Below, piece by piece: positions 12,709-54,744 of a stretch of 64,000 bases of DNA. Source of the DNA: Candidatus Iainarchaeum sp. (GTDB lineage Archaea > Iainarchaeota > Iainarchaeia > Iainarchaeales > JAZDEL01); assembly GCA_043808785.1 (NCBI GenBank), contig JAZDEL010000006.1, positions 41,264-105,263 of the forward strand, given 5' to 3'. The notes beneath the pieces were generated by a model. That model saw only the letters and a program-made list of their open reading frames with translations, was not told the DNA's origin and made no database searches. Numbering within the stretch: the first letter of the stretch is position 1; each line of letters starts with the position of its first letter. The translations under genes and the position numbers were made by a program.

Positions 12709-12856
12709 GCAGAACCACAGATAGGATAGGGGGAATGAAATAGTTAAACTTAATGTTCCGGCACCCGCGGGGAGTACTGAAAAAACACAAAAAACAAACC
12801 GCGGTTGGCGGGAAAAAGCATTAAATAACACGTGGGGCATTAGAGTTACGGTTAAG

Positions 12857-14029
12857 ATGGAACTGTTTCTCGTTCTCGGCGCGCTGTTCCTGCTGACGTT
12901 CCTTATCGGGCAGGTTGTGGAGAAAATAAGGGTGCCGTGGATTTTCGCCGCGCTGCTCATAGGCACCGTGCTTGCCGCGTATAACCCGGTCGGGGACGTG
13001 ACCTCGTCCGAGCCGTTTATTTTCCTGGCGCAAATGGGGATGTATTTCCTTCTTTTCGTGATAGGGTTTGAGATAGACCTTGCGGAGTTCAGGAAGGCGG
13101 GTGCGTTCATACTGAAGAGCACGTTTTTCATAATCCTGCTTGAGGCGGTGTTCGGCAGCCTGCTTATCCACTTCGTTTTCGGGTATGATTGGGCGATATC
13201 GGCAATAGTTGCGCTGTCCTTCGCCACGGTTGGGGAAGCCATACTCATCCCGATACTTGACGAGTTCGGCATCGTTAACACGAGGCTCGGGCAGAGCATA
13301 ATAGGGATAGGGACGCTCGACGACATAATAGAGGTTGCGATGCTTATCGTGGTAATAATGCTCGTTGGCTCGCAGGGCGCGGCGCAGGCAAGCGCGGGGG
13401 TTACGCTTGTTTCGCTCTTCGTGCTTTCCGCGCTTGCCGTGGTGCTGATGAGGCTGGGCAAGTCGGGCAGGAAGTTCATGTTTCACGGCATCGAGATGCT
13501 TTTCCTGTTCGTGCTTTTCGTGCTTTTCCTTTTCCTCGGGGTCGGGGAGTATGCGAACGCGGGGCCTATAGCCGCGCTCCTTGCGGGGATTTCGCTTAAG
13601 GCGTTTGTGCCGAAGGAGAGGCTGCAGGCGATAGAGTCCGAGGTAAAGACGATGTGCTACGGCTTCTTTGCGCCGGTGTTTTTCCTCTGGGTCGGGCTTT
13701 CGCTCGACATAGGGTATCTGCTTGCGTTTCCGCTGCTTGTGCTTGCGGTAGTGGTTGTTTCAAACAGCGCGAAGATTCTGGGCAGCTACATAATGGCGAG
13801 GAAGGAGCTTGGCACAAGGCAGTCGATTCTGCTCGGCATCGGGCTGTCAGTGAGGTTCAGCACGAGCATAATCATAGTAAAGATTCTTCTTGACAACGGG
13901 CTTATAGGCGCGGAGTTGTATTCGGTAATTGTCGCGTCAAGCATAGTGTTCAAGTTTGTCGTGCCCGTGCTGTTCTCAAACCTGCTCGTGAAGTGGGGCG
14001 TTTCGAAGGGCTCAACCGTAGCGGGGTAA
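12857..14029 (+). CDS. cation:proton antiporter (CPA2 / Kef-type Na+(K+)/H+ exchanger family)
   Basis: About 11-12 TM helices with Na_H_exchanger-like motifs. 390 aa. Confidence 0.7.
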   Translation: MELFLVLGALFLLTFLIGQVVEKIRVPWIFAALLIGTVLAAYNPVGDVTSSEPFIFLAQMGMYFLLFVIGFEIDLAEFRKAGAFILKSTFFIILLEAVFGSLLIHFVFGYDWAISAIVALSFATVGEAILIPILDEFGIVNTRLGQSIIGIGTLDDIIEVAMLIVVIMLVGSQGAAQASAGVTLVSLFVLSALAVVLMRLGKSGRKFMFHGIEMLFLFVLFVLFLFLGVGEYANAGPIAALLAGISLKAFVPKERLQAIESEVKTMCYGFFAPVFFLWVGLSLDIGYLLAFPLLVLAVVVVSNSAKILGSYIMARKELGTRQSILLGIGLSVRFSTSIIIVKILLDNGLIGAELYSVIVASSIVFKFVVPVLFSNLLVKWGVSKGSTVAG

Positions 14030-14042
14030 AAAAATAAGAAAG

Positions 14043-14184
14043 TGGGAAGAGCGGGATTTGAACCCGCGACACCACGGTTTCTGCTCCTTTCGCAAAACCT
14101 GGAATCTTCAGCTGCACATGGGCAGAGCGTGGAAAACTCCCCTCAACGCCCATCGTGTGCTCTCCCAGGCTGAGCTACCTTCCC
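14043..14184 (-). tRNA. tRNA-Phe(GAA)-like gene, 142 nt, probably with two introns
   Basis: 5' half GGGAAGGTAGCTCAGCCTGGGAGAGCACACG and 3' half CCGTGGTGTCGCGGGTTCAAATCCCGCTCTTCCCA are 68 nt apart. Removing a 41-nt segment after position 30 and a 27-nt segment after position 38 leaves G+CTGAAGA as the anticodon loop and a 74-nt cloverleaf. The anticodon assignment is an inference. Confidence 0.6.
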
Positions 14185-14207
14185 ACTCCAAGAATTGGGG
14201 GCTTTAT

Positions 14208-14218
14208 TGTTTAAAAAG
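14208..14218 (-). promoter_or_regulatory. TATA-like box (TTTTTAAA on minus strand) about 26-33 nt upstream of the tRNA 5' end
   Basis: A/T hexamer in GC-rich surroundings at the expected archaeal spacing. Confidence 0.4.
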
Positions 14219-14222
14219 GATT

Positions 14223-14858
14223 CTATTCCGTCGCAGCCATGGCCCGCGCTAGTTTATAGGGGTTTGAAAAGCCGATTTCGGAAATCCATTTTCGCAGGTT
14301 TGCCTTCCCGTTTAGTGGAACCTTATATGCGGTTCGGACTGATGTTTTTGATTTGTAAGCCCAAATTTTTGCAACATTGAATCCGGCAACGCTTAATAGT
14401 TCCTTCAACTGTTCCGCAAGAGCGCGGCTCGTAGTGGTTATCTCAATAGAAGGGTATTTCGGCGAGCCCGGTTTGTCGGCCACGAAAACGGAGCCGTCCG
14501 TGTCCACGATGCCCCGGATTGCGTGCTTTGCCGACTCCCAATCGGCTTCGATTTCGGCGGGAATTTTGGCCTTAGCGCACTTGCCTTCATGGAAAGGCAA
14601 CCTGAATGTAGTCGTCAGGCGTTCCACGATCGGCTTAGAGTCAAATTTAATTCTGACCGCACGTTCCCTGAATTTAGGCTTAACCACCCGCCCCCATGCG
14701 GAATAAATTAGGCGGCTCAGATTTTCAAAATACTGCGCATCGGTTATTGGATTTCCCGTAAAGCCGATTATGTATTTCCTGTTGCGTTTGTAAATGTGCC
14801 CGTCCCCGAGGTAGGCGCCGATTAGTTCGCATTCTTCGGGAGAAATAGTTTCAGCCAT
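14223..14858 (-). CDS. LAGLIDADG homing endonuclease, double-motif, free-standing
   Basis: Two LAGLIDADG motifs, LIGAYLGDGHI and IRGIVDTDGSV. 211 aa, between two intron-containing tRNA genes. Confidence 0.8.
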   Translation of the reverse strand: MAETISPEECELIGAYLGDGHIYKRNRKYIIGFTGNPITDAQYFENLSRLIYSAWGRVVKPKFRERAVRIKFDSKPIVERLTTTFRLPFHEGKCAKAKIPAEIEADWESAKHAIRGIVDTDGSVFVADKPGSPKYPSIEITTTSRALAEQLKELLSVAGFNVAKIWAYKSKTSVRTAYKVPLNGKANLRKWISEIGFSNPYKLARAMAATE

Positions 14859-14960
14859 ATTATATAAAAGGGTTTGCGCAATTTAAAGGCTCGCAGAGAG
14901 TGCATTTCCGCTGCGGTTTTTGCCTTAAGCGGTTTCCGGTGCGAAGTGTGCCGGCCCAGT

Positions 14961-15072
14961 AATTTTAAAACGAGCCCGAGGGGATTTGAACCCCCGACAC
15001 CTTGGTTAAAAGCCAAGTGCTTTTGGCGGAAGGGGGCATGGAAACCCGCCCGACTTCCTCTACCAGACTGAG
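14961..15072 (-). tRNA. tRNA-Lys(UUU), 112 nt, with a 38-nt intron in the D-stem (non-canonical position)
   Basis: GGGCCCGTAGCTCAGTCTGGTAGAG | 38 nt | CACTTGG-CTTTTAA-CCAAG-GTGTC-GGGGGTTCAAATCCCCT-CGGGCTC-G. Excising GAAGTC...CAAAAG restores the GAGC D-stem and a 74-nt cloverleaf. Confidence 0.8.
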
Positions 15073-15097
15073 CTACGGGCCCGTCACAAAGAACGGG

Positions 15098-15107: not shown

Positions 15108-15387
15108 AATTTAAATGTGTGCGGGCGGGAAAAACAAACAAAAAAAACGCGTCCGTGGTTTGGCGGGTTTGGTTGGTTTTGCCGGGTTTGCCGGGTCGTG
15201 GCGGGAAACAAACCAAAAACCGCGCAGGAGCGCGGTTGGTTTTGTTGGGCTTGCGGGGTTTGCTGTGCCGGCAAACCAGCAGGCAAACCATCGGGCATGC
15301 GTGCCCGCGGGGATTTTTCGAGTTCATTTCCGCAATGCGAAAGAAACATTTATATAATGCGTTATATATCAACTATATGTTGATTAT

Positions 15388-15615
15388 ATGGCTAGCGTCA
15401 CAACAATCCAGATAGGAAGGAATGTGCTGGAAGAACTGAAGAAAACAAAGCAGTACCCTAGGCAGACCTATTCCGAGATAATCCTGGAGATGGCAAAGGC
15501 ATACAGAAGCGGCAAATTGAAGAACCAGTACGACGAGTTCCTGCACAAGATACAGCAGGAAAAAATGAAGGAACTCTGGGGCAATAAAGAGGACGAGGCG
15601 TGGGAAAATGCCTGA
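15388..15615 (+). CDS. putative antitoxin (small DNA-binding protein) of a type II toxin-antitoxin pair
   Basis: 75-aa ORF whose stop overlaps the start of the MazF/PemK-like gene by 8 nt. Confidence 0.45.
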   Translation: MASVTTIQIGRNVLEELKKTKQYPRQTYSEIILEMAKAYRSGKLKNQYDEFLHKIQQEKMKELWGNKEDEAWENA

Positions 15616-15925
15616 GCAGGGGGATGTCGTGCTTGCGGCAATCCAGTTTGCCGACACTTTCGAGATAAAAAAGAGGCCTGCTGTAGTGCTTTTTTCCGAG
15701 TTCGGGAATGTGGTTGTTGCGGGAATTACGAGCAATACGGGGATGCAGGGCATAGCGCTTACGAAAAAGGACGGGGCGATAAAGGACAGCGTGATAAAGC
15801 CGAACTATATTTTCACTATATCGGAGAAGGCTGTGGAGAAGCGGCTTTTTTCCCTTGGCGCCGCGAAAAGGCTGGAACTATATTCCGCGCTGGAGAAAAG
15901 GCTCGGCGGGCTGAAGGGGCGCTGA
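15608..15925 (+). CDS. MazF/PemK-family toxin (mRNA interferase)
   Basis: GDVVLAAIQFADTFEIKKRPAVVL...GITSN pattern typical of PemK/MazF. 105 aa. Confidence 0.6.
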   Translation: MPEQGDVVLAAIQFADTFEIKKRPAVVLFSEFGNVVVAGITSNTGMQGIALTKKDGAIKDSVIKPNYIFTISEKAVEKRLFSLGAAKRLELYSALEKRLGGLKGR

Positions 15926-15951
15926 AAATTGCTGGCGCCCGCAATTGCGGC

Positions 15952-16868: not shown

Positions 16869-17004
16869 CGAGCCCGAGGGGATTTGAACCCCCGACACCC
16901 TGGTTGCCCCAGAATGGAAATTAAGAGCCTCACCCACGCACAAGGAAACCGCAAGCGGAAACTTGAAACATGACAGGTGCTCTACCAGACTGAGCTACGG
17001 GCCC
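16869..17004 (-). tRNA. tRNA-Lys(CUU)-like gene, 136 nt, probably with two introns
   Basis: Acceptor, D and T arms are identical to tRNA-Lys(UUU). Removing 45 nt after position 30 and 17 nt after position 38 leaves G+CTCTTAA as the loop between CCTGG/CCAGG stems, giving 74 nt. The anticodon assignment is an inference. Confidence 0.55.
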
Positions 17005-17036
17005 TGATTGAACCGAAATAATTGGGGGGTTGAAGG

Positions 17037-17046: not shown

Positions 17047-17124
17047 TTGCGCGGGGGGAAGGGGGGAGAAAAAACACAACAAAACAAACCCCGGCGCGCC
17101 GTGGTTTTTGTTTGGTTTGTGGGG

Positions 17125-18426
17125 TTATTTCGCGCCCTTCCTGGGCTTAATCTCGTCAATCCCGTGCATGAAAGGGAGCAAGGCATCTGGGATTTTTACT
17201 GTGCCTTTTTCGGTCTGGAAGTTTTCTACAATCGCGCGGATTGTGCGCGAGGTTGCGAGCGCTGTGCTGTTCAAAGTGTGAACGAACTCCTTGCCCTGCG
17301 CTGTGCGGAATTTTATGTTAGAACGTACTGCCTGGTAAGAGGTGCAATTAGAGGCGGAAACAACTTCGGCATAATTCTGTTCGCGCGGGAACCATGCCTC
17401 TATGTCGTACTTGCGTGCTGCAACTGTGCCTATGTCGCCTGTGCAGACATCGACAACGCGGCAAGGTATGCGCAGACCCTGGAGGAGTTCCTCCGCGTTT
17501 TTCAGGAGTTCGTCAAGCAGTTTTGCGCTTTCTTCTGGTTTGCAAAATACGAACTGTTCTACCTTGTTGAACTGGTGCACGCGGAACAGGCCGCGAGTAT
17601 CAACGCCGTGCGCGCCGATTTCGCGGCGGAAGCAGGGAGAGATGCCTGCGTATTTCAAAGGCAGGGAACGCTCCTCGAGGATTTCGCCTGCGTGCATTGC
17701 GCAGAGCGGGTGCTCGGAAGTTGCAATCAGGTAAGTGTCCACACCCTCGATTTTATACATAACTTTCTCGAAGTCTTCAAGCGCCGTGACCCCTTCATAT
17801 GGCGCGCGGTTCATGAAGAAGGGCGGCTTTATCGGCGTGAAGCCTTTCTTGAGCAGGTGTGAAAGGGAGTATTGCACAAGCGCGCTGTCGAGGAGCGCGA
17901 GTTCGCCAATGAGGAAATAAAAACCCCTGCCGGAGGTTTTCGCTGCGCGCTCGAAATCAACCAATCCTGCGTTCTGCAGGAATTCGCCGTGGGGATGCAT
18001 TTTGAATGAAGGAACTTCTGTTTTGCCCCAGCGGCGGATGACCTTGTTTTCCGAGGAGTCTTTGCCCAAGGGGACGTCTTTTTCGAGGAGGTTGGGGAGG
18101 GAGAGGAGCATCGGGCGCGCCTGAAGGCGGAGTTTTTCCGCCTTTGCGTCAAGGGCCGCAATCTTTTTCGAAACCGCCTTTGCTAGCGAGATTTTTGCCT
18201 TTGCTTCTTTTTTTGAGGCGGCTTTTGAAATTGTTTCGGTTAGGGTGTTGCGCTTCTTTTTGAACTGCTCGGATTGGTAAGAGAGGCGAACGATTTTCTT
18301 GTCAAGCGCAAGAAGCCTTTCCAGCAGCGCTTCCTTCCCTCCCATGCCGCGGCGCTTGAGGTCTGCTTTTACCGCATCGGGGTTTGCGCGCACGAATTTC
18401 AGGTCGAGCATGTGAACACGAACCAA
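17125..18426 (-). CDS. serS: serine--tRNA ligase
   Basis: N-terminal coiled-coil arm plus class II aaRS core. 433 aa. Confidence 0.9.
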   Translation of the reverse strand: MVRVHMLDLKFVRANPDAVKADLKRRGMGGKEALLERLLALDKKIVRLSYQSEQFKKKRNTLTETISKAASKKEAKAKISLAKAVSKKIAALDAKAEKLRLQARPMLLSLPNLLEKDVPLGKDSSENKVIRRWGKTEVPSFKMHPHGEFLQNAGLVDFERAAKTSGRGFYFLIGELALLDSALVQYSLSHLLKKGFTPIKPPFFMNRAPYEGVTALEDFEKVMYKIEGVDTYLIATSEHPLCAMHAGEILEERSLPLKYAGISPCFRREIGAHGVDTRGLFRVHQFNKVEQFVFCKPEESAKLLDELLKNAEELLQGLRIPCRVVDVCTGDIGTVAARKYDIEAWFPREQNYAEVVSASNCTSYQAVRSNIKFRTAQGKEFVHTLNSTALATSRTIRAIVENFQTEKGTVKIPDALLPFMHGIDEIKPRKGAK

Positions 18427-21940: not shown

Positions 21941-22033
21941 GAATAAAACAGCACTTCTACATAACTATGCAGGCGGCACCCTAGTTTCGTTGCTCCCTTA
22001 GAATTACGGCTTAAAGGGGCTGAAAATTAGGGC

Positions 22034-25321: not shown

Positions 25322-25430
25322 GGCGCCCTAAAAAACAAACAAAAACCGCTCGCGGTTAGCGCGAACCAGCGGTTCTGTTTTCGGGTTTGTTTTTATTGCA
25401 TTTTTATTCCTTTTCATCTCCAATTGATTT

Positions 25431-27547: not shown

Positions 27548-27682
27548 TTAGGCGACTTTCCCAAACAAAAGTGCGTTAACTTCTACATAACGGGTACAGG
27601 GAGCGAAGGATTTTGCTGCTCCCTTTGAAGCCGGAAAATGCGGGCAGCGGGCGTTTGCGGCATTCCTGCCGCGGGGCGGGCG

Positions 27683-29713: not shown

Positions 29714-29802
29714 AACCCGCCGCGGTTTTGCCTAACCCCGCAAACCGCGCCCGTGCTTGTGCGTTTTGTTTTTTCTTTTTCGCACCTTCCTTTTTCGCCG
29801 CC

Positions 29803-34736: not shown

Positions 34737-35270
34737 ATGCCTCTAAATCCCAGACCTGCCCGAAAGCGGGAGAAGAGAACGCGCCCCATAAATATCCAGA
34801 AAAAAGCAGAGAGGGATGCGCTGATAAACACGCTAAGGCGGGCTGAGGAGCTCGGGCAGGGCGCCATAATGCAGCACGGGAGCGGAAAATATCACCCGAA
34901 AACAGTACGGGGCGTTCTCGCGCTTTTAGGGGCGCCTGCAGGTTCGCTGTTTATTCTTTACGGGCTCAGGCCCGCGGAAACCCTGGAGAGGGGGATAGGG
35001 CCCGGGCTGAAGGTAATGCGCAGCGCCGGCGGGGGCCTTACAGGGTTCTTCTGCATAAAGCAGAAAAACGAGAGGGGAACTTCTTATTTTATGCCGCTAT
35101 TTCTGCACGGGCCTTTGCAAAAGCCGGGCTGTTGGGACCGTTACAGCGCAGGCATATATTCCCTCGGCGACCTTCTTAAGCTGTTGAAACTCGGGAAGCC
35201 GCGGTTTTACGGGGCGAAGGTAAATGCGGGCGGCGGCTGGCTTTACAAGCTGCCGGAGCTGGCGGAGTAA
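34737..35270 (+). CDS. hypothetical protein
   Basis: 177-aa ORF. Confidence 0.35.
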   Translation: MPLNPRPARKREKRTRPINIQKKAERDALINTLRRAEELGQGAIMQHGSGKYHPKTVRGVLALLGAPAGSLFILYGLRPAETLERGIGPGLKVMRSAGGGLTGFFCIKQKNERGTSYFMPLFLHGPLQKPGCWDRYSAGIYSLGDLLKLLKLGKPRFYGAKVNAGGGWLYKLPELAE

Positions 35271-35883: not shown

Positions 35884-36507
35884 ATGATATCTGACGAATA
35901 CATAATGGGCTTTGTCGAGGGCGAGGGCTGCTTCAGCATAACGCTGCAGCGTTACTTTGACCGCAAGCCCAGGGCAACTGGCCGCAGGAACAACCGCAAG
36001 CACAAGGCGTTTCCGATACGGTTGGCTCCAAGCTTCAGGATTACGATAAGGGAGAAAGACAGGCGCGTGCTTGATGAGATTAAGGAAAAGTTCGGTTTTG
36101 GCTCCATTTATTTGCAAAGGAGACAGGGGGAAAATTGCCAGGATACTTGCCAATATGTTGTAGAAACCTTTGGGGATTTGTTTGTTCTGGTGGATTTCTT
36201 CTCAATGCAGACTTTTTACACTCAGAAAGGTGAGGATTTCAGAAAATGGGCCCAGGCTCTCGAGATTTTCAAATCCGGCGGGCATTTAACAAAGGAGGGC
36301 GCGCTGGAGATTTGTAGGCTCAGGGACTGCATGAACCTACGGATGAACAAAGGCAACCGTGTTTCCGAAGAGGTTAAGGCTCTCCTCGAGGAGAAACGCG
36401 AGCACATTCTGGCGCATGCAGACAAAAATCAGAGTAAACTTCTACATAATTGTGATGGGGCACTGCCCAAATCGCCGTTCCCTTTGACGCAGCAACCCAC
36501 ACCCTAA
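35884..36507 (+). CDS. LAGLIDADG-family homing endonuclease, free-standing
   Basis: YIMGFVEGEGCFSI motif (LAGLIDADG_3-like). Locally AT-richer than the surroundings. Confidence 0.65.
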   Translation: MISDEYIMGFVEGEGCFSITLQRYFDRKPRATGRRNNRKHKAFPIRLAPSFRITIREKDRRVLDEIKEKFGFGSIYLQRRQGENCQDTCQYVVETFGDLFVLVDFFSMQTFYTQKGEDFRKWAQALEIFKSGGHLTKEGALEICRLRDCMNLRMNKGNRVSEEVKALLEEKREHILAHADKNQSKLLHNCDGALPKSPFPLTQQPTP

Positions 36508-36844
36508 GCCGTTACGAACAGGAACTGCCTCAAGTTAATTTGTCGATTTCGCCTGTATTGCATCTAAAACTGTTCAAATGCCAAAAACAACCCCCTATGT
36601 TCCACTACTGTTATTCCGATATGGCATAAAATACTCCTTATTTGCCCTCAGGATGCAAGATAAACAATATTATGCTGTAAAATCCCTTCGCAAAATTTCG
36701 CAAAATTGAAAAAAACGCACATGGGTTTTGGCGGGCTTCCTTAAGGGGCTTTGGCTGGTTTGCGAAGCGGCTCTGAGGGCGCCTGAAATGGTTCTGAAGG
36801 GAGCAGCGGACTGGCTCCGGCGCCTGCATGGTTATGTAGAAGTT
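36437..36844. repeat. inverted 14-mers AACTTCTACATAAT / AACTTCTACATAAC (rc) flanking an about 380-bp AT-rich segment
   Basis: 36437-36450 (+) and 36831-36844 (rc). Members of the CTTCTACATAAC family. Confidence 0.55.
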
Positions 36845-36865
36845 AGATCCGGTTTTTGCTTAAAA

Positions 36866-37517: not shown

Positions 37518-37880
37518 TCAGCCTTCCACAATAAGCTGCATATCCTTGGCGTATGTCCTGTCCACGAACTTCCAGTCCTTGTGGTGTTCCGTTACGCGCA
37601 TCCGCACATCCAGTTCACCCGGGTCGGCAAGCGCCTTCGGGTAAATATCGTAATAGAACCTTTTCCCCTCCCCAGGCGCAAGGCCCTCTATCCTCTCCAC
37701 CTTGCTCCTTACAATTCCGCTCTTGTCGAAAGACAGCAGCCTTGCAAGCGCAAGCTCCATGCTAACCAATTCGTTCCTGTCTCCCCTGTTCTCCACCTCA
37801 ACCGTGAGCTGAACCGGCTTTTTGTCCCTGAGCTTCAGCCTGAACGGATGAAAATGTGTCTTTATGCTCAGCATTTCCAC
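37518..37880 (-). CDS. hypothetical protein
   Basis: 120-aa ORF. Confidence 0.4.
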   Translation of the reverse strand: MEMLSIKTHFHPFRLKLRDKKPVQLTVEVENRGDRNELVSMELALARLLSFDKSGIVRSKVERIEGLAPGEGKRFYYDIYPKALADPGELDVRMRVTEHHKDWKFVDRTYAKDMQLIVEG

Positions 37881-38173
37881 ACCCCCGTTTTAAAAAATCC
37901 CCAACCGTTCCGATTTGGTTCGTTGCGGTTCGCCGCAATTTGCCGAACCCAACCACCCGCGCGGTTTGGTTTTGGTTTTCCCGATTAATATTCTTGCCGA
38001 GAGTGCTTAAAAAACAATATCTTGGTTTTTCCGCGCGCGCAAACCCCGAAAAATGCGCGCGTTTTTTGGTTTTTATTGCGGTTTCCTTTCCGCAGGCTCC
38101 CGCAAACCTTTAAATACAGGTTGCGGAATAATTAATTGGAAACGGAAAAAGTCTTTTTGCCTGCAGGAATGGT

Positions 38174-38665
38174 TTGGAGCTGCCAACAATGCCAAAATCA
38201 GAATTTCCCGAAGCCGCGCTTGTTCGCAGCGCCTTTACAATCCGCGAAATGGATTTTCCCCCCGAAATAGCAATGACAAAGCGCTCCCTCCTGCGCTGGT
38301 TTGCCCTTTCCTCGGGGTTAATTTCCGAGCGCGAATCCCGCTCCACAATCCTTGATGTGCTCGACGCCCTATTCTGCATGCAGATAACGCACGCAAAGGA
38401 GCCAACCTCCAACGAAATCCGCCTCTTCATGGACGAACGCGGAAAAAAAATCTCGGACAAGCTTCTGCGCTATCACCTGAAGCGTATGCACGATTTGGGC
38501 CTTATCCACAGGAAGCGCCTGCGTTATTCCTTTGCGCACGCGCCCAATGCTGACCGCTCCGACCTGAAAGCGGGCTTTAACCACAACATCACGCGCAAGG
38601 TTCACGCATCCCTTGCCGCAACGGAGAACGCGTTCGAAAGGCTTGGGATGAGCTATAAAAAATAA
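38174..38665 (+). CDS. winged-helix transcriptional regulator
   Basis: LRYHLKRMHDLGLIHRKRLRYSF recognition-helix/wing-like segment. Confidence 0.45.
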   Translation: MELPTMPKSEFPEAALVRSAFTIREMDFPPEIAMTKRSLLRWFALSSGLISERESRSTILDVLDALFCMQITHAKEPTSNEIRLFMDERGKKISDKLLRYHLKRMHDLGLIHRKRLRYSFAHAPNADRSDLKAGFNHNITRKVHASLAATENAFERLGMSYKK

Positions 38666-38683: not shown

Positions 38684-39547
38684 ATGCACTCAATCATAGT
38701 TTCCCGCACGGATAAGGCTGGCATGAACATTGCGCAGCGCCTTATCGAGTTCCACGGGTTTGCGGAAACAAACGAGAAATTCCTCGGGGAAGCAATTTAC
38801 AAAACCCAAAACAACAAAAACCCGCACGCGCGCGATTTTCAGTTGGTTTTTATCAAGCGCGAGCAGATTTTCGCCGACGAGTTAAACTCGCTCGAAACAG
38901 ATTTCTTCATCTTCGCCTCCAAGCACCGCTCCGAATCAGGGCGCCCAACGCTCACGGCGCACGGGATAGGGAACTGGGGGGAAGACGCAAGTTTTGGGGG
39001 GAAGCAAAGAACGCTCGTGCCCACCTCCGCGAATTTGCTCAAGAATTATTTGCTTGGTTTGCAGGAGCAGAAGGAAACCCTCAAAAACAAAAACGCACTC
39101 GCTGGTTATGATGTAATGTTAGAGGTAACACACCACGGCCCGTTCCTCGAGAAACCCGCGGTTTTCATCGAGCTCGGCTCCTCAGAGGGACAATGGAAGG
39201 ACGAAACTGCGGCACGCGCGGTTGCGGATGTTGTTATGTATAAAACCTTTGCCAAACCGGCGGAAAAACAAATTCCCGCAATCGGTTTGGGCGGCGGCCA
39301 TTACGCGCAGGAATTCTCGAAACTCGTTCTCCGCAAAAATTACGCGCTCTCGCACATCGTTCCCGAGTATGCGCTCCCCAATTTCGATGCCGAAATGCTG
39401 CGCAAGGCAATCGCATGCACCCTTGAACCGGTGCAGGAAATCGTTGTCGACTGGAAAGGTCTGGGCAAGGAAAAAGCGCGCATCAGGGCGCTCCTTGAGG
39501 AGCAGGAACTGCCTGCGGTCGACGCCAGAAAACTGCTAAGGGGATGA
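38684..39547 (+). CDS. dtdA: D-aminoacyl-tRNA deacylase, archaeal DTD2 type
   Basis: MHSIIVSRTDKAGMNIA... N-terminus and overall length (287 aa) match the DTD2 family. Confidence 0.8.
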   Translation: MHSIIVSRTDKAGMNIAQRLIEFHGFAETNEKFLGEAIYKTQNNKNPHARDFQLVFIKREQIFADELNSLETDFFIFASKHRSESGRPTLTAHGIGNWGEDASFGGKQRTLVPTSANLLKNYLLGLQEQKETLKNKNALAGYDVMLEVTHHGPFLEKPAVFIELGSSEGQWKDETAARAVADVVMYKTFAKPAEKQIPAIGLGGGHYAQEFSKLVLRKNYALSHIVPEYALPNFDAEMLRKAIACTLEPVQEIVVDWKGLGKEKARIRALLEEQELPAVDARKLLRG

Positions 39548-40144: not shown

Positions 40145-40996
40145 CTATTCCAGCGCAATCTCAGTTCCTATGCAGTTTTTACCCCCCAACAGGAGATACA
40201 GATTATTAGTGCCATTCAGATTAAAAACCACGGCACTTGTGCCTTTCATGTGCATTTCAAGGTTTTCCAGCTTCCCCCGCATGCCGCTGGTTACATCCGT
40301 TGCCTTTGAACCGCCAACCCCGCGCAAAACCGCGCGGAAATTCGAGTTTGTTATTTTTTTAATTATTTTCGCCCCCCCTGCGGCAATCCTGCCCGCGTTT
40401 TTGTTTTCCCCGCCAAAACCCGCCTTTGGTTCCGCTGCATACACCCCCTCGACATCGGTCCCGAAAAAAACCTTCTTTGCATGCAGTTTTTTCGCGAGGT
40501 AAGCAGCAATCGCGTCCCCGCTGACAACGCTCGCGCCGAGTTTGGAGTCGAGTACCATATCCCCATACATAATTGGCACGACAAACCCGTCCATCTTAAT
40601 CAAACCCCCGACCAAACCCGTATCGAAGCGGGTTATTTTTTTGTTTTTCTGGGTTATGCACGCGCTCGCTTGGGAAGGGAAGGCAAGCAGCCCTTCCTCG
40701 TTGAAAATTTCAACAACCTTCGCGCACAGCCTTTCCATCGAATTGTGCGTTTCCACGAAACCCTTAACCTGCTCCTTAGTGCGCACGCCGTTGTTTATTC
40801 CATATTTTTCAACAGGCACGTGCCCGAAAGGCCCCGCGCCCAAAACAATGATGAGTTTGAATTTTTTCTCAGCGGAGGCGCGCTTAATTTCCTGCGCGAT
40901 GCGCCTCACGGCATCTTCCCTTACCCTTGCTTCCCCCGAAGCCTTGTCCGTGATGACGCTTCCCCCTAATTTGGTTATGTATAAGTTAGCGCTCAT
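40145..40996 (-). CDS. isopentenyl phosphate kinase (amino-acid kinase family)
   Basis: KLGGSVITDK, LGAGPFGH, DVTSGM. Confidence 0.75.
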   Translation of the reverse strand: MSANLYITKLGGSVITDKASGEARVREDAVRRIAQEIKRASAEKKFKLIIVLGAGPFGHVPVEKYGINNGVRTKEQVKGFVETHNSMERLCAKVVEIFNEEGLLAFPSQASACITQKNKKITRFDTGLVGGLIKMDGFVVPIMYGDMVLDSKLGASVVSGDAIAAYLAKKLHAKKVFFGTDVEGVYAAEPKAGFGGENKNAGRIAAGGAKIIKKITNSNFRAVLRGVGGSKATDVTSGMRGKLENLEMHMKGTSAVVFNLNGTNNLYLLLGGKNCIGTEIALE

Positions 40997-44652: not shown

Positions 44653-44700
44653 GAACCCTCCAAACCATTGCCGCGTTTTTTGTTTTGTTATTTTGTTTTT

Positions 44701-45303
44701 TTATTTCCGATTCCCCGCAATTGCTTGCTTTCCTTCCCAGCGCCTGTAAAGGTTGTTCTCCAACCCAATTAAATCCATAACCTTCCCCGCAACAAAGTTC
44801 TCCAAATCGCCTATGGTTTTGGGTTTGTGGTAAAACCCGGGGCTGAGCGGAAAGACAATCCCTCCGGCAACCGCAATCTTGTGCAGGTTCTCGAGTGCGG
44901 GTGCGCTCAGCGGAGTCTCCCTCACGCACACGACCAGCGGCTTCCTTGTGCGCAGCATGTTGTCGGCACAGCGCGTTATAAGCGTGTTTGTGTACGCATT
45001 AGCAATCCCCGAGCACGTCTTCACGCTCGTGGGAACAACAACCATTGCATCCACTTTAAACGAGGTGCTTGAAACCTTTGCCCCCATCTCCTTTTCCGAG
45101 TAGTGGAAGTGCGCCAGTTCTTTTATTTGCTTTGCCCCAATGTTCGCTTCGGCCTTAACCAGTTCCTCCGCCCACTCGCTCATTATCAGGTGCATCTCAA
45201 CGCCCCTTTCCTTCCCCAGCGCCTTAAGCAGTGCAACCGCGTAATTCACTCCAGATGCGCCGCTCATTGCAATAATTATCCTGCGCTTAGCCATGTCACA
45301 CAC
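44701..45303 (-). CDS. ubiX: flavin prenyltransferase UbiX
   Basis: IIIAMSGASGVNYAVALLKAL, 200 aa. Confidence 0.85.
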   Translation of the reverse strand: MCDMAKRRIIIAMSGASGVNYAVALLKALGKERGVEMHLIMSEWAEELVKAEANIGAKQIKELAHFHYSEKEMGAKVSSTSFKVDAMVVVPTSVKTCSGIANAYTNTLITRCADNMLRTRKPLVVCVRETPLSAPALENLHKIAVAGGIVFPLSPGFYHKPKTIGDLENFVAGKVMDLIGLENNLYRRWEGKQAIAGNRK

Positions 45304-46234: not shown

Positions 46235-46355
46235 TGCAACCAACCGCGCCCAAAAAACCAAACCGCCATCCAAAAAACAGAAAACGGTTTTTTGTTTTTC
46301 GTTTCCGCCAACCAAGAAACCAAATGCGTTTTTGTTTTTTTATTTCCGCTTCCCC

Positions 46356-46778
46356 TTACTTCACGACCCTGAACTTGTAGCCGTAGGCAATCGCCCCTTC
46401 TTTCCTCTGCTCGGAAATCTTCCTGAAAACCTTCTCCACATGTGCGCCTATCCTTACCTTTTCATTTTCGCTGTCCACGACCTGGCTTAACAGCCTCGCG
46501 CCGTTCTCAAGTTCTATTATCGCAAGGAAATAAGGCGTTTCGTGGTCGAACCCCGTGGGTCCTGTCATTACCTCCGTGTATGAAATAACCTTCCCCTTCC
46601 TCGGCATCTGCTTTGCTGAAAGCTTCCCGCGCCTCCTGCAGTTCGGGCAAACTCCCCTTGCCGGGAAGAAATCCTCGCCGCATGTGCTGCACGAATTGCC
46701 GGCAAGCGTGTAGCGCTCGGGGAACTTCCTCCAGATTAACGGCAGTGCTTCGCTCATTTCATGCACCCCCCGCAACAC
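46356..46778 (-). CDS. DUF35 OB-fold/zinc-ribbon protein (scaffold of the archaeal thiolase-HMGCS complex)
   Basis: CSTCG...CPNC zinc ribbon plus OB fold. Confidence 0.75.
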   Translation of the reverse strand: MLRGVHEMSEALPLIWRKFPERYTLAGNSCSTCGEDFFPARGVCPNCRRRGKLSAKQMPRKGKVISYTEVMTGPTGFDHETPYFLAIIELENGARLLSQVVDSENEKVRIGAHVEKVFRKISEQRKEGAIAYGYKFRVVK

Positions 46779-48045
46779 AATATGCGAATTTATTTCCCGT
46801 TAATTTCCTCTCGACAAGCCCCTCTTCAGACATCCGCAATAGAACATCGCGCACATGCCTTCCCGACCTTTTGCACGCCTTTGAAATGCCCGAAGCGGTT
46901 GCGAGAACGCCCTGCGCATTAAGATTTGTGATTGCTTTAATATAGTTCTCCGAAGCCTCGTGGCGCGGGAAAGACTCGAGCCCGTCAACATACCTGCCAA
47001 GAACATGCACGAGTTTGTTTTCCTTCCGTTCCAGGCCGAAACCGACCTTCTCGAGATATTTCCGCAGGTTCTCCCTACCGCTTATTATAAGTGTCCAATT
47101 GAGCGTAACTTCCCCGCTGCTTTTGAAATTGCGCCCCCTGACGACTATTTTTGATTTAATGCCCATGACTTCCAATGACTGCTGAACATCCGACAGCAAC
47201 TGCGGCTTTTTTGCGGCAGTTTCTTCCGCAGCGGTTGTGGGGCATATCAGAGTAATCACCCTGCAGTGATAATTATCCACAACACAGCCGTCATCGTCAA
47301 ACAGCCGTCTCAGGAGGGCTATAAGCGGCTTTCTATCGCCCGCCGCAATGAACTGCCTGGGAATTCCTAATTCGTAATTATAATTTTTGTTGCCGTCAGG
47401 AATCCCGATAGTGCCGAGGATTACGCCGATTATTTTGGGGAAAATTACGCAGGGCACGCCGCTTGTCGACCTGTGGCGTGCAAACCTGACATCGCCAAAT
47501 GTGGAAACAACCGCACCCACAAAACTATCGACCTGCTGGCGCTCGTTGTTGAAGTACCAGACGCGCATCTTGCTTTTTTCTATCCCGCCGTCGCCCAAAA
47601 CTCCGCCAACAACAAGCCCGAATTCCTCGGTCAAAATTTCGAAAGGCAGCTTCGGGTTTTTTATTTTCTCTTTTGATTTCAGGGTTTTCAATTCAATTAC
47701 TTTCTTTTCTATCTTCCGCCCGTTAATGCCAAGTTCATCCGCAGCCCTGGCCAAAAACGAAAGCGGCATGCCGCTCCTTCCGACGGAATACCGCCTTGCG
47801 GATTCGCCCCTGCCGAGCCCGAAAGCCCTTGCGATTGCGGAAAACGAGCCGTGTTTCTTCAAGAGCGCCCCGAATAGTTCCTTCCTGAACTCGGCATCCA
47901 GCGTAACGCGAATTTTGCCCGCAGGCAAATCAAAAAGGGAAATGCTCGCCATTTCATCTTCACCAGCAATAAATATGTTTTTTATCCCCTTAAATAGTTT
48001 CGGGAGAGTGCATTTCCGGTGCGAAACAGAAATTTCCGTATTCAT
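46759..48045 (-). CDS. LAGLIDADG-family protein (double-motif) with N-terminal HTH-like and C-terminal winged-helix-like extensions
   Basis: LVVGGVLGDGGI and LIALLRRLFDDDGCV motifs. Its ATG overlaps the thiolase TGA (ATGA at 48045-48042), and its stop overlaps the DUF35 start by 20 nt. Confidence 0.7.
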   Translation of the reverse strand: MNTEISVSHRKCTLPKLFKGIKNIFIAGEDEMASISLFDLPAGKIRVTLDAEFRKELFGALLKKHGSFSAIARAFGLGRGESARRYSVGRSGMPLSFLARAADELGINGRKIEKKVIELKTLKSKEKIKNPKLPFEILTEEFGLVVGGVLGDGGIEKSKMRVWYFNNERQQVDSFVGAVVSTFGDVRFARHRSTSGVPCVIFPKIIGVILGTIGIPDGNKNYNYELGIPRQFIAAGDRKPLIALLRRLFDDDGCVVDNYHCRVITLICPTTAAEETAAKKPQLLSDVQQSLEVMGIKSKIVVRGRNFKSSGEVTLNWTLIISGRENLRKYLEKVGFGLERKENKLVHVLGRYVDGLESFPRHEASENYIKAITNLNAQGVLATASGISKACKRSGRHVRDVLLRMSEEGLVERKLTGNKFAYCVAGGA

Positions 48046-49220
48046 CTTTTCCCCTCCAGTGCCTGCAAAATGTGAATCACGCATGTTGCCCCACTCCCCC
48101 CGATATTGTGCGTCAGCCCTATGTGCGCATTCTTAACCTGCCTCTTCCCCGTAACCCCCCTTACTTGCTCGCAAATCTCGATAGCCTGCTTAACGCCTGT
48201 TGCGCCGACAGGGTGCCCGCATTTAAGCCCGCCCGAGGTGTTAATCGGGATTTCACCTTTTAGTGCGGTTTTTCCGTCCTCGCTTGCTTTTCCCCCTTTG
48301 CCCTTTTTGAAGAACCCCAAATCCTCTATTGCAAGTATTTCCGCGATTGTAAAGCAGTCATGCACTTCCGCCAAATCAATATCCGAAATCTTAAGTCCCG
48401 ACTGCCTGAGCGCCTCCTGCACCGCAACCTTCGTCGCCCACAGTTCGGTAAGGCTCTTCCTGCTAGCAACGGCAAGAGTATCCGAAGCCTGCGCGCTCGC
48501 AATAATCTCGACAGGTTCCTCACACAGTTTTCTTGCCTTATCCGTCGCACACAGGATTGCCGCTGCTGCACCGTCGCTGATGGGCGAGCAATCCAGCAGT
48601 TTCAGGGGAGTTGCAACATACCCTGAATTCATCACATCCTCAATTGTAATTTCATTGTGGAATTGTGAGTGGGGGCTGTGCATGCCGTTCGCATGGTTCT
48701 TCACTGCAACAGCGGCCATCTGTTCCTCCGTTGTTTTGAACTCGTGCATATGCCTCCTTGCAAGCAGCGCATAGAGTGCGGGGAAAGTTGCGCCCTGGAA
48801 AAGCTCGGTTTCCTGGTCCCCCGCGCCCCCCAAAGCAAAGCCCGCTTCCTCGGTGCTTACCTCAGTCATCTTCTCCGCCCCGCCGACAGCAACAACATCA
48901 TACATTCCGGAAGCGATCGCGTGGTAAGCCGCCCTAAGGGCAACCCCGCCAGAAGCGCATGCAGCCTCAACACGCGTGCTCGGCGCGGGATTCAGCCCTA
49001 ACTGATCCGCAATAAGCGCCCCAATATGCTCCTGCCCTATGAACCTTCCAGAAGCCATGCATCCGCCGTAAACCGCCTCTATATCCGCCCCGCTTATGCA
49101 CGCGTCGCTTATCGCCATTATTCCCGCCTCGGCAATAAGCTCGCGGAACGACTTGCCCCAGTGCTCCCCGAATTTCGTTATGCCCGCGCCGATAACCGAA
49201 ACGCTCCTCATGCCGCGCAC
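48042..49220 (-). CDS. acetyl-CoA C-acetyltransferase (archaeal acetoacetyl-CoA thiolase)
   Basis: Thiolase Cys region CASGG, C-terminal NIGGSGATCV. Confidence 0.9.
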   Translation of the reverse strand: MRGMRSVSVIGAGITKFGEHWGKSFRELIAEAGIMAISDACISGADIEAVYGGCMASGRFIGQEHIGALIADQLGLNPAPSTRVEAACASGGVALRAAYHAIASGMYDVVAVGGAEKMTEVSTEEAGFALGGAGDQETELFQGATFPALYALLARRHMHEFKTTEEQMAAVAVKNHANGMHSPHSQFHNEITIEDVMNSGYVATPLKLLDCSPISDGAAAAILCATDKARKLCEEPVEIIASAQASDTLAVASRKSLTELWATKVAVQEALRQSGLKISDIDLAEVHDCFTIAEILAIEDLGFFKKGKGGKASEDGKTALKGEIPINTSGGLKCGHPVGATGVKQAIEICEQVRGVTGKRQVKNAHIGLTHNIGGSGATCVIHILQALEGKR

Positions 49221-49337
49221 CCCGTGCCAATGCCGATTGCGGAAACGCCTCTCATAGCATCAACCCTTTCGACAAATTTTCCCGCAAAACCCCGCCCGTG
49301 AACCCGCGCGCGGTTTTTTGTTTTTTTGCCGCCCCCG

Positions 49338-51711: not shown

Positions 51712-51737
51712 TTAATGCACCCTTTGCCAAGCAGCAG

Positions 51738-52460
51738 TCACGCACCATCAGTAAGCACCTTCAGCCCCGCATTTTCCAGCAGTTCCTTTGCAGCACACAT
51801 CTCACTATTTGTAGGGGCTCGAACTCCTTTTAAGGGGAATTTCAGCCCTATCTCCGTCCATTTCCTTTCGCCGAGCGCACTGTAAGGCAGCAGTTCAACG
51901 CACTCCAGCATTTCAAGGGTTTTCGCAAACTCCGCGAGCGCGGCAATATCCGCTTCGGCATCCGTGAAGCCCGGAACAACCACATAGCGCAGCCTTACGG
52001 GCCTGCGCGCCGCGGCAAAGCGTATGTTCGCGAGCGCCTCCCCGTTGCTCCTGCCCGTTATTTCGCGGTGCCTTTTATCGTCCATATGCTTCACGCTGCA
52101 CATGAACAGGCTTGTGTAAGGCAGCACGGTTTCGACCGCGGACCTGTCCGCGTACATGCACGAATCCAGCGCGGTGTGTATTCCGCGTTCGTTGCAGCGC
52201 CTCATCACTTCGGCAACGAACCCGGCCTGCATAAGCGGCTCGCCCCCGGAGAAGGTAACGCCGTTTATGTACCGCACGCTGCGCTCTATGCCGAGGAACA
52301 GTTCCGTTGCAGACATCTTCTTCCCGCCCTTCCCCGCCGCAACATCTATGTTCTGGCAGAACTTGCACCTGAGGGGGCAGCCCTGCATGAAAATAACATA
52401 GCGCCTTCCCGGGCCGTCAAGGGTGCCGAAACTTTCGACAGAGTGGACCAAACCCTGCAT
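51738..52460 (-). CDS. pflA: pyruvate formate-lyase (glycyl-radical enzyme) activating enzyme, radical SAM
   Basis: CPLRCKFCQN cluster motif. Confidence 0.85.
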   Translation of the reverse strand: MQGLVHSVESFGTLDGPGRRYVIFMQGCPLRCKFCQNIDVAAGKGGKKMSATELFLGIERSVRYINGVTFSGGEPLMQAGFVAEVMRRCNERGIHTALDSCMYADRSAVETVLPYTSLFMCSVKHMDDKRHREITGRSNGEALANIRFAAARRPVRLRYVVVPGFTDAEADIAALAEFAKTLEMLECVELLPYSALGERKWTEIGLKFPLKGVRAPTNSEMCAAKELLENAGLKVLTDGA

Positions 52461-52488
52461 GCGAAACCACGCCGCGGTTTTTTTATTT

Positions 52489-54744
52489 TTATATTTTCTC
52501 GTGGAACGAGCGGTTAATCACTTCCAGCTGCTGCTCCCTGCTCAGCCTGCTGAAATTCACCGCGTAACCGCTAACCCTTATGGTAAGCAGCGGATATTTT
52601 TCAGGATGCGCCATCGCGTCCTTAAGCATCTCCCTGTTCAGCACGTTCACATTTATGTGCTGCGCCCCCTTTGCGAAATAGCCCTCAAGCAGCCCTGCAA
52701 GGTTTTCAACGCGCTCATCCGCGCCTTTCCCGAGGCCCTCCGGCACGACAGAGAACGTGTTGCTTATCCCGTCAAGGCAGCTACTGTATGGCAGTTTCGC
52801 CACGGAGTTGAGCGAAGCCACTGCTCCGCAGCAGTCCCTTCCGTGCATCGGGTTCGCGCCCGGAGCGAAAGGCTCGCCCGCCCTTCTCCCGTCCGGCGTT
52901 GCCCCTGTCTTCTTCCCGTACATCACGTTGGACGTAATCGTAAGTATGCTCAGCGTGTGCTCCGCGTGCCTGTATGTGGGGTACTTCTTCAGGAACTGGT
53001 TAAACCCGACAACGCCCTCCACTGCAATATGGTCCGCCCTAGCATCGTCATTCCCGTAGCAGGGGAATTTCCCCTCCACAACAAAGCCTGTTGCTATTCC
53101 GCGCGCGTCCCTTACAGGCTTCACTTTCGCATACTTTATCGCGGAGAACCCGTCCGCAAGCACGCTCAGCCCCGCAAGCCCGAACGCCATATACCTTTTC
53201 ACCTTCGTGTCGTGCAGTGCCATCTGCAATGCCTCGTAATTGTATTTGTCGTGCATCGCGTGAATTATGTTCATTGCCTCCACGTAGTTCTTCGCAACCC
53301 AGTCGGCGAGAACCAAAAAGTTGTTCTTGACCTCGTCGTAATCCAGGTATTCGCCCTGCGGCAGAGGCACCTGCGGCGCAATCTGCTCCCCGGTAATTTC
53401 GTCCTTTCCCCCGTTAATCGCGAGCAGCAGCAGCTTCGCCCCGTTGCACCTCGCGCCGAAGAACTGCATCTCTTTTCCCGTGCGCATAGCGGAAACGCAG
53501 CACGCTACGGAGTAATCGTCCGAAAAATACGCGCGCATCAGGTCGTCGTTCTCGTACTGTATGGATGAAGTTTCTGTCGAAACCTTTGCCGCAAACTTCT
53601 TGAACTCCGCAGGCAGCGCGCTGCTCCAGAGCACGGTTAAGTTCGGCTCGGGCGCAGCGCCCAGATTGCGCAATGTCTGCAAAAACCTGTAGCTTGTCCT
53701 GCTCACAAGCGGCTCGCTGCTTGCCCCGCCAAGGCAAACCGTAACCCAGTTCGGGTCCCCCGCAAATATTTCGCCGTACTCCTTGGGGCGAAGATGCCTT
53801 ACAAGGCGCATCTTGATTACTATCTGGTCAACCAGTTCCTGCGCCCCGGCTTCGCTTAATTTTCCCGCGTCCATATCCCGCCTTATGTAAATATCGAAGA
53901 ACGAATCAGGCCTTCCGAAGCTCATTGCAGCGCCGTCCTGCTCCTTCACCGCGGCAAGGTAAGCAAGCCAGGCCCACTGCACGCATTCCCGTGCGTCCTT
54001 TGCAGGCTTCCCTATATCGAACCCGTACGATTTCGCCATTTCCTTAAGTTCATGCAGTGCCGCAATCTGGTTAGCAACCTCCTCCCTCAGGAACGGCCCG
54101 TTTGCGTCCATCTTCGCGAGATCCTTTTCCTTTTCCCCAATAAGCCTGTCAACTCCGTAAAGCGCCACACGCCTGTAATCCCCTATAATCCTCCCCCTGC
54201 CGTAGTTGTCGGGCAGTCCGGTTATCACGCCCGCACTCCGCAGTTTCTTTATCCCTTCAGTGTACGCGTCAAACACGGCATCGTTATGCGTCTTCCTGTG
54301 TTTGGTGAAAATTTCCTTAACCTCCGGGTTCAGTTCAACCCCGTATTCCCCGCACGCCTTCTCAACAAGGCGTATTCCGCCCTTCGGCTTTATCGCCCTT
54401 ACCAGAGGCTTCTCGGTTTGCAGGCCGACAATAACCTCGAGCCCCTTTTCAATATAGCCGGGCGCGTGCGAATTTACAGTTGACGGCTTTGAGCAGTCAA
54501 TCCCAAGCACGCCGCCCTTTTCCGCCTCCTCTTTCAAGAGTCCCAGGCACCTTCCCCAAAGCTCTTTTGTGCGTTCGCTCTTGCACTGCAGGAATTCCAC
54601 ACTCCCCAAATAAGGCACATGGTTCTTCTGTATGAAATCCCTTACATCAATAGTGCGCCGCCACTGCCCCGCATTGAAGCCGCGCCATTCACTAACCTCT
54701 TCTGCGGAAGCAATTGCCTGCTGTACGTCGTGCCTATTCTGCAT
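52489..54744 (-). CDS. formate C-acetyltransferase / glycyl-radical enzyme
   Basis: C-terminal glycyl-radical motif RVSGYAVNF. 751 aa. Confidence 0.9.

Follow-up and report, generated by a model that had tools for sequence, protein, structure and literature searches.

Short A/C tracts clamped by GC-rich sequence

The 64-kb archaeal stretch analysed here (the window, which means this whole stretch of DNA) carries short modules, at gene boundaries and inside genes, in which a tract of A and C is clamped by GC-rich sequence, and these modules are real and peculiar to this lineage. The explanation we favour, tentatively and at somewhat less than even confidence, is that they are lineage-specific terminator-type hairpin elements, created and remodelled through slippage and local duplication, that would be tolerated in operons only with the A-rich strand transcribed. 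The evidence below shows their anatomy, their origin, their turnover and their restriction to the lineage; from it we infer their termination behaviour and any selective value.

Each module consists of a G-rich clamp, 13-27 nt of A and C only, in which A5-A8 runs are parted by single C's, a GC-rich core of variable sequence (CCGCGG, CGCGCG, CGCAC or CCCCGG) and usually a G/T-rich partner arm. In most modules the G/T-rich stretch 3′ of the core is partly complementary to the A/C tract (e.g. AAAACC-GC-rich core-GGTTTT), and many are imperfect palindromes of A/C arm, GC core and G/T arm; fully two-armed copies lie at 15199-15250, 17063-17124, 25326-25398 and 38003-38078. An earlier sequence-only reading of the window had described a general form GGCGG-A/C tract-CCGCG(G) at eight loci. 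All eight are present beside the genes it named (gene identities checked with Pfam) and the A/C tract and GC clamps stand, whereas the G/T partner arm had been omitted and the core is not fixed. Extra copies lie beyond its range, at 56496-57215.

To quantify the pattern, A/C tracts were defined as at least 12 nt long with at least 65% A and no more than one interruption, and the window was compared with 100 dinucleotide-preserving shuffles of itself and with a control set of 461 kb of unrelated fetched loci (GC 48-58%). The window holds 52 such tracts, against 20.5 in the shuffles (maximum 34); 19 of them have CGCG or CCGC within 8 nt downstream (1.5 in the shuffles, maximum 6) and nine have GC clamps on both sides (0.15, maximum 2), while the entire control set yields seven downstream-clamped tracts and none that is doubly clamped. 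Since the density of clamped tracts is ∼20-fold that of comparable DNA, the pattern is real. Palindromes of the type AAAC(1-3)-GC-rich loop-G(1-3)TTT are likewise more frequent in the window (13) than in the shuffles (3.75, maximum 9) or the controls (1.5 per 64 kb).

Placement and orientation of the modules

In five co-directional gene pairs the module starts 0-22 nt past the upstream stop codon and ends 17-103 nt ahead of the true start of the downstream gene, the first in-frame start codon of thiolase, mvk and transketolase lying 5′ of the true one. The sequence-only reading had presented the elements as lying upstream of start codons, but the upstream stop codon is the anchor. It was right to place them in co-directional spacers; the antiporter, mazE and HAD sites on its list are, however, divergent regions between two promoters, and there are also copies in coding sequence.

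Every module carries a run of 5-8 T on its T-rich strand, usually of at least six. Within operon spacers the sense G/T arm reaches only T3-T4, except between DUF35 and mvk (two T6 runs), whereas at the boundaries of transcription units at least one strand of the module carries T5-T8. A T-run downstream of a gene on its sense strand is found only in the DUF35/mvk spacer and at 17063-17124, the other operon spacers having it antisense. T5-T6 is also seen, no farther than ∼50 nt from the stop codon, at several further transcription-unit ends of the window.

The orientation of clamped tracts inside transcription units is uniform, with 12-13 sense-A and no sense-T cases overall (8:0 in coding sequence, 4-5:0 in operon spacers); a further seven lie in divergent regions, including those at 37965 and 38062, which were reassigned via a gene at 37518-37880. 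The claim that the A-rich strand is mostly the mRNA strand is thus borne out, though to no greater degree than the background, as coding sense strands contain 85 A runs of at least 6 nt and 14 such T runs. Of the two departures from background by which the family was to be judged, enrichment exceeds what composition gives (19 vs 1.5; 9 vs 0.15) and orientation does not exceed the general bias (85:14).

Conservation, origin and turnover

The statistics rest on the window and two ∼7-kb contigs (14.6 kb in total), L081 and L087, which are Logan contigs from one sample (SRR22387960) with the gene order of the window, 82-94% amino-acid identity and a GC content of 52%. The next relative is a Diapherotrites metagenome-assembled genome (MAG) with 83% amino-acid identity in UbiD and 47-49% GC. 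For the antiporter and aminotransferase regions no close relative was found, a scan of JGI metagenomes giving only relatives at no more than 57% identity.

Modules are kept in all four spacers that can be compared with L081/L087 (hmgS/thiolase, DUF35/mvk, ubiX/ubiD and pflB/pflA), and at all of these sites the tracts of both organisms are nearly without G and T. The orthologous spacers are 81-91% identical across aligned columns, a figure inflated by gap placement and low complexity, while 42% of four-fold degenerate sites (773 sites) differ between the window and the SRR22387960 organism. The tracts have been kept despite this divergence and are therefore maintained, either by selection or by continual regeneration through slippage. 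In the Diapherotrites MAG at 83% identity no modules were found, the spacers there being 2-37 nt long with GGAGG. Presence in the window and in the SRR22387960 organism, together with absence at 83% identity, shows that the modules arose on the branch from which the window genome and its nearest known relative descend.

All four orthologous spacers differ by indels of 22-72 nt, a length polymorphism between close relatives. The hmgS/thiolase tract is 22 nt longer in L081, the second DUF35/mvk tract is present in the window and not in L081, and the ubiX end has an extra 24-nt clamp segment in the window; at pflB/pflA, the window has AAATAAAAAAACCGCGGCGTGGTTTCGC only, against a complete two-armed palindrome in L087 (ATAAAAACAAACAAAAC-GCCGCGGTTCGCGTGCGG-GTTTTTGTTTTTTTG). 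Short tandem duplications are common around the modules. They include a 44-nt tandem duplicate of the thiolase 5′ end at 49211-49255 (minus strand), whose upstream copy keeps an out-of-frame ATG and gives a short overlapping upstream open reading frame (ORF), and, in L087 (6757-6790), a degenerate second copy of the pflA 5′ end.

The sequence-only reading had also raised the possibility of a small dispersed repeat. Composition and architecture are indeed shared, but sequence is not: k-mer sharing among the tracts is at or below that expected from shuffled tracts of the same composition, so that the family is one of composition and architecture and not of descent from a common sequence. With both k-mer enrichment and tract k-mer sharing negative, a homologous repeat family was rejected; the copies do not lend themselves to alignment as homologues. 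The sole exception is a 26-nt string (GGGGAAKCGGAAATAAAAAAACAAAA) with two window copies 1.6 kb apart, past the DUF35 stop codon and across the UbiX stop codon, which is absent at both L081 sites and from all 96 fetched loci; this restriction to the window indicates recent local copying. Taken together, these comparisons show rapid change by slippage, tandem duplication and local copying.

The modules as terminator-type elements

T5-T6 near gene ends is the usual archaeal termination signal (PMC2253867, PMC8716108, PMC7515710). Oligo-dT of 5-6 residues terminates archaeal RNA polymerase (RNAP) in vitro (PMC2253867), and U-tract strength scales with termination efficiency together with aCPSF1 (PMC8716108, PMC7515710). 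Because archaeal RNAP terminates at non-template oligo-T, we infer that copies within transcription units persist only where the mRNA contains the A-rich strand and the sense G/T arm is T3-T4. The modules do land just past stop codons in operon spacers, in divergent promoter regions and in frame in tolerant linkers. In this model, at intra-operon copies sense transcription would pass, while an antisense polymerase would meet U6-U8 and stop; two-armed copies at boundaries, which have five or more T on one strand or on both, could serve as a terminator or insulator ahead of the next promoter for polymerases arriving from either side.

The antisense strand had earlier been described as a GC hairpin plus oligo-U. 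The T5-T8 run is there in every copy and the stable abutting hairpin in only about one third, and an antisense-terminator role would be compatible with these sequences. A generic scan for hairpins followed by T-runs picks up several modules, among them those with hits on the antisense strand at 49296-49313 and 29746-29763 and on both strands at 15218-15237.

Several observations weigh against the terminator reading. Only 6 of 18 copies have an antisense hairpin of -10 kcal/mol or lower no more than 2 nt from the U-tract, and ten spacers folded as RNA are mostly no stabler than their shuffles (z from -2.6 to +0.2). Bidirectional terminators would be expected between convergent genes, but the spacers of the convergent pairs in the window measure 3-37 nt and contain no modules. 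The orientation bias of the modules is no stronger than the general A-over-T bias on coding strands, and two operon spacers even break the rule, with two sense T6 runs at DUF35/mvk in the window and sense T5 and T7 runs at pflB/pflA in L087. Copies in coding sequence need no transcriptional role. Finally, the conservation of the spacers may owe much to Shine-Dalgarno (SD) and promoter signals and to the ease with which low-complexity sequence is aligned.

Other roles that were considered for the tracts fared as follows. The only recurrent feature of the RNA folds is a short GC stem closing an A-rich loop, and Rfam 15, run at gathering threshold on the whole window, reports three tRNAs only and no match to the modules; with folds not consistently stabler than shuffles, a structured RNA family was rejected. 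A TATA or promoter role was rejected as the tracts lie upstream of promoter boxes at variable distance (a TATA-like ATATAAAA lies inside the tract region at pflB/pflA only), and an SD role was rejected as the GGAGG or GGGTG motifs are separate and downstream of the modules.

Individual copies and their surroundings

The window has a GC content of 53%, and its proteins have the database entries MFH1225095.1 to MFH1225146.1 (MAG: Candidatus Diapherotrites archaeon), from a contig of 113,830 nt; the closest species representatives are Candidatus Iainarchaeum, with 71-74% amino-acid identity in thiolase. According to Pfam, the window carries the genes of an archaeal mevalonate cluster (HMG-CoA reductase, HMG-CoA synthase, thiolase, DUF35, mevalonate kinase, UbiX, UbiD, aconitase X and isopentenyl-phosphate kinase) together with pflB/pflA, a GltD-like oxidoreductase, a class I LysRS, an antiporter and others. 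The promoters look archaeal, with (C)CTTTAAATA-type boxes ∼26-30 nt 5′ of many start codons.

Between LysRS (minus strand) and the Na+/H+ antiporter (plus strand), the module at 12765-12812 (plus strand) reads CCGCGG-N9-AAAAAACACAAAAAACAAA-CCGCGGTTGGCGGG and adjoins the B recognition element (BRE)/TATA of the antiporter (GCATTAAATAAC) on its upstream side; its CCGCGG...CCGCGG stem closes a 28-nt A-rich loop (fold z = -2.6). The 210-nt divergent region between a tRNA promoter (minus strand) and mazEF (plus strand) holds a module at 15121-15185 (plus strand), GCGGGCGGG-AAAAACAAACAAAAAAAA-CGCGTCCG-TGGTTTGGCGGGTTTGGTTGGTTTTG, the minus strand of which places T8 and T5 immediately 5′ of the tRNA promoter TTTAAAT (15109). 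Upstream of mazE follows the two-armed module at 15199-15250 (plus strand), TGGCGGG-AAACAAACCAAAAA-CCGCGC-AGGA-GCGCGG-TTGGTTTTGTTGGG, which scores as terminator-like on both strands. Beside this densest cluster of modules, 15388-15925 (plus strand) holds a mazE/mazF-like toxin-antitoxin pair of 75 and 105 aa with an 8-nt overlap, an assignment made from sequence only. A coding role for the intergenic copies was rejected: an 80-aa ORF at 15115-15357 resembles a two-helix membrane protein, but composition leaves all six frames open there and the tRNA promoter overlaps the ORF start. The tRNA genes of this region bear introns (14975-15087, 14043-14184 and 16869-17004, all minus strand); Rfam detects two of them, and the gene at 14975-15087, which has the TTTAAAT promoter at 15109, is missed by ARAGORN and by Rfam at threshold.

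The two-armed module at 17063-17124 (minus strand), CCCCACAAACCAAACAAAAACC-ACGGCGCGCCG-GGGTTTGTTTTGTTGTGTTTTTT, lies directly past the stop codon of a gene at 17125-18426 (minus strand) and ahead of a tRNA promoter (CCTTTAAATA), and has a sense T6. Another two-armed module, AAAAAACAAACAAAAACCGC-TCGCGGTTAGCGCGAACCA-GCGGTTCTGTTTTCGGGTTTGTTTTT, occupies 25326-25398 (plus strand) in the divergent region between a Xer-type integrase (minus strand) and a HAD hydrolase (plus strand). The aminotransferase/transketolase spacer at 29714-29802 (minus strand; fold z = -2.2) contains two modules, of which the first, GGTGCG-AAAAAGAAAAAACAAAA-CGCAC, is preceded by a short A-run starting 7 nt past the stop codon, and the second is GCAAAACC-GCGGCG-GGTTTTGC; it is in this spacer that the terminator scan finds the antisense hairpin and T-run at 29746-29763.

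Modules on both strands are found at 37955-38078, between the gene at 37518-37880 (minus strand) and that at 38174 (plus strand), with GGG-AAAACCAAAACCAAA-CCGCGCGGGTGGTTGGG on the minus strand and the two-armed copy at 38003-38078 on the plus strand (AAAAAACAAT..CGCGCGCA-loop-TGCGCGCG-TTTTTTGGTTTTT). That this region is divergent depends on recognising the gene at 37518-37880 (minus strand), a 120-aa ORF without a Pfam match that has a good TTTTTTAAAA box ∼20 nt upstream. It is probably a real gene, and would alter the reading of the 36.5-38.2 kb region.

Within the mevalonate cluster, the ubiX/ubiD module at 44653-44716 (minus strand) reads GGGGAATCGGAAA-TAA-AAAAACAAAATAACAAAACAAAAAA-CGCGGCAATGGTTTGGAGGGTTC; its 5′ part lengthens the UbiX C-terminus and provides the stop codon, and a GGAGG SD motif is kept downstream. 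The DUF35/mvk spacer at 46241-46355 (minus strand) has A/C tracts at 46329-46341 and 46288-46304, followed by the G/T arms with the two sense T6 runs, and carries the second copy of the 26-nt string, GGGGAAGCGGAAATAAAAAAACAAAA. In the hmgS/thiolase spacer the module at 49256-49337 (minus strand) runs TGA-CGGGGGCGGC-AAAAAAACAAAAAA-CCGCGCGCGGGTTCACGGGCGGGGTTTTGC and is followed by a conserved AAATTTG..GAAAGGGTTG box; this spacer is 91% identical to that of L081 across aligned columns. Between thiolase and DUF35, and overlapping both, is a 441-aa ORF with a LAGLIDADG_3 domain (46759-48084, minus strand). L081 lacks this ORF and has 4 nt between the two genes; the ORF has the appearance of a homing-endonuclease-type gene inserted recently. 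A second LAGLIDADG gene (LAGLIDADG_1) lies at 35884-36507 (plus strand).

The pflB/pflA module at 52461-52492 (minus strand) reads (TA)TAA-AAATAAAAAAA-CCGCGG-CGTGGTTTCGC-ATG. Upstream of the pflB TATA, a palindrome at 54808-54830 (AAATTAACCATGTTAATAT, minus-strand sense) is fully conserved in L087, where the promoter region is 93% identical, and is a candidate regulator-binding site for pflB.

Four coding regions hold copies. In D-aminoacyl-tRNA deacylase (38799-38836, plus strand) an A/C tract encoding KTQNNKN precedes a 15-nt GC-clamp insertion that is specific to the window, CCGCACGCGCGCGAT (PHARD). Isopentenyl-phosphate kinase (40379-40423, minus strand) has ..GGCGGGG-AAAACAAAAA-CGCGGGC.. 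in a window-specific in-frame insertion of 13 aa that is absent from two relatives. In the GltD-like oxidoreductase, GGCGGCGG-AAAAGAAAAAAACAAA-CTAACCGCGGTTTTG at 56496-56530 (minus strand) encodes GGGKEKNKLTAVL and is identical in L087, and is therefore ordinary coding sequence that fits the pattern. Two tandem copies at 57100-57215 (minus strand), in the linker of the same GltD-like protein ahead of the Rossmann GxGxxG, encode GGKKTNKNKTAAAVGSAAA and GGKKTNKTAAVVGS; they form a 27-aa expansion that is absent from relatives at 78% and 65% identity, and the linker contains a 57-nt duplication. Compared with relatives, the window has six specific protein insertions of at least 3 aa, three of which are modules or clamps (13 aa in isopentenyl-phosphate kinase, 5 aa in the deacylase, 27 aa in the GltD-like protein), and two of the remaining ones create a CCGCGG site. 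The alignments thus show in-frame landings in tolerant protein linkers.

Apart from the modules, the window has a repeat of ∼60 nt with the layout AAGGGAGCAGC..N17-22..(C)ATNGTTATGTAGAAGTTA..N5-8..TTTT, at 21951-21965, 27577-27591 and 36436-36450 (minus strand) and 36831-36845 (plus strand), with the core only at 40974 and 50813. Its 15-mer core occurs six times where 0.05 would be expected, and of the four long copies three lie 3′ of gene ends; candidate identities are a small RNA, a terminator-associated element and an att-like site.

Alternative explanations

In the closest rival reading the modules are neutral products of lineage-specific A-run slippage and of short duplications, tandem or nearby, and only harmless copies survive (A on the mRNA; Lys/Asn/Thr-rich linkers); we regard this as possible while doubting it. 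It stays close because the orientation bias equals that of coding strands in general and because coding copies exist. The large tract indels between close relatives, the tandem duplications of gene 5′ ends beside modules, the resemblance of the in-frame insertions in three enzymes to local duplications, and the lack of common sequence beyond composition would all follow from it. However, four of four spacers have preserved pure A/C tracts with comparable GC cores across the 42% four-fold divergence, slippage alone leaves both the GC clamps (19 vs 1.5) and the partner arm (13 vs 3.75) unexplained, and nothing similar is seen in the relative at 83% or in the 461 kb of controls.

A stronger form of the terminator reading would make the one-armed modules positively selected one-way transcription valves past stop codons, that is, antisense insulation that a DPANN lineage acquired recently and that spread by local copying, even into linkers. 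We think this unlikely.

Less likely again is a translational role, in which the unpaired A/C tract is an unstructured mRNA segment that serves the downstream cistron as translational enhancer or standby site, assisting ribosome loading or re-initiation, and to which we would give little credence. The tracts do lie in mRNA sense between co-directional genes and are nearly free of G and T, and CA-rich or A-rich leaders are translational enhancers in bacteria. Yet it is the distance to the stop codon (0-22 nt) that is constrained and not that to the start (17-103 nt), the downstream genes retain their own GGAGG or GGGTG while relatives without modules use short GGAGG spacers, and copies are also present inside genes and in divergent, probably untranscribed regions. 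When the tract was replaced by random sequence the fraction of replacements as open as the native sequence at the downstream start was 0.11-0.82, so that predicted accessibility was not lowered. The proposal of the sequence-only reading that these are re-initiation spacers fails on the same grounds.

A classical mobile element is also among the less likely explanations, and we consider improbable a tiny selfish palindrome that propagates by insertion, comparable to repetitive extragenic palindromic (REP) sequences and bacterial interspersed mosaic elements (BIMEs), miniature inverted-repeat transposable elements (MITEs) or Rickettsia palindromic elements (RPEs). The palindromic build, the position past stop codons in operons and in frame in enzymes, the presence/absence differences between close relatives and the 26-nt pair 1.6 kb apart, missing from both L081 sites, are in keeping with such an element. 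On the other hand, the copies share no consensus and vary greatly in length, the coding insertions resemble adjacent sequence, and in the window neither terminal inverted repeats nor target-site duplications were seen, nor a transposase or RAYT-like gene (Pfam, most ORFs).

A signal at the DNA level, with the CCGCGG palindrome and A-tract as a dimeric-regulator or SacII-type restriction-modification site or as chromatin-excluding poly(dA:dT), is very improbable: CCGCGG occurs more often than in shuffles (70 vs 37 sites), AACCGCGGTT-type palindromes are present at several modules and the modules cluster at gene boundaries and promoters, but the core is not fixed, most CCGCGG sites are in coding sequence remote from tracts, and the shuffles ignore codon usage, so that Ala/Pro/Arg/Gly codons may account for the excess. 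Window-specific protein insertions at 34971 and 41732 each create a CCGCGG site. As a fixed palindromic site AAACCGCGGTTGG was rejected, since with up to two mismatches it is not enriched in the window (5 vs 3.5 in shuffles).

Implications and comparison with known systems

If the modules stop antisense but not sense transcription they would constitute a compact, orientation-dependent archaeal terminator design; intrinsic termination signals in archaea are thought to be little more than T-runs. If they are terminators, the birth of such signals would be dated to the short branch between two sampled genomes, and if they are a mutational by-product, a small symbiont-type genome can rapidly gain low-complexity inserts of 30-100 nt in operon spacers and enzymes. 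There is also a warning for annotation: artefacts or consequences of the tracts in the window include several start codons, an 80-aa ORF and a UbiX C-terminus.

Of the systems that the modules resemble, archaeal oligo-T terminators (aCPSF1/FttA) share with them the T5-T8 on one strand and the position of the two-armed module at 17063-17124 between a stop codon and the next promoter, and other gene ends of this genome have the T5-T6 of that class; unlike such terminators, the modules have their T-run antisense in operon spacers, and possess GC clamps and an extended A/C arm, neither of which archaeal termination requires. Bacterial bidirectional intrinsic terminators have the same A-tract/GC hairpin/U-tract build as 15199-15250, 25326-25398, 38003-38078 and the L087 pflB/pflA copy, and several modules are caught on both strands by the hairpin-plus-T scan, whereas the host here is archaeal, most modules are without a stable hairpin, none sits between convergent genes and one arm is usually far longer than its partner. 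Like REP/BIME sequences and RPEs, the modules are short imperfect palindromes, lineage-restricted, found past stop codons and sometimes in frame in enzymes, but they lack a consensus, are much shorter and more variable, and have no mobilising gene that was seen in the window. With mononucleotide or cryptically simple microsatellites they have in common an A-run-dominated low complexity and large length differences between close relatives, in contrast to which stand their consistent GC clamps and complementary arm and their retention at orthologous sites across ∼42% neutral-site divergence. Set against these systems, the modules are a variation on known terminator-like (oligo-T or bidirectional) and low-complexity palindromic spacer DNA.

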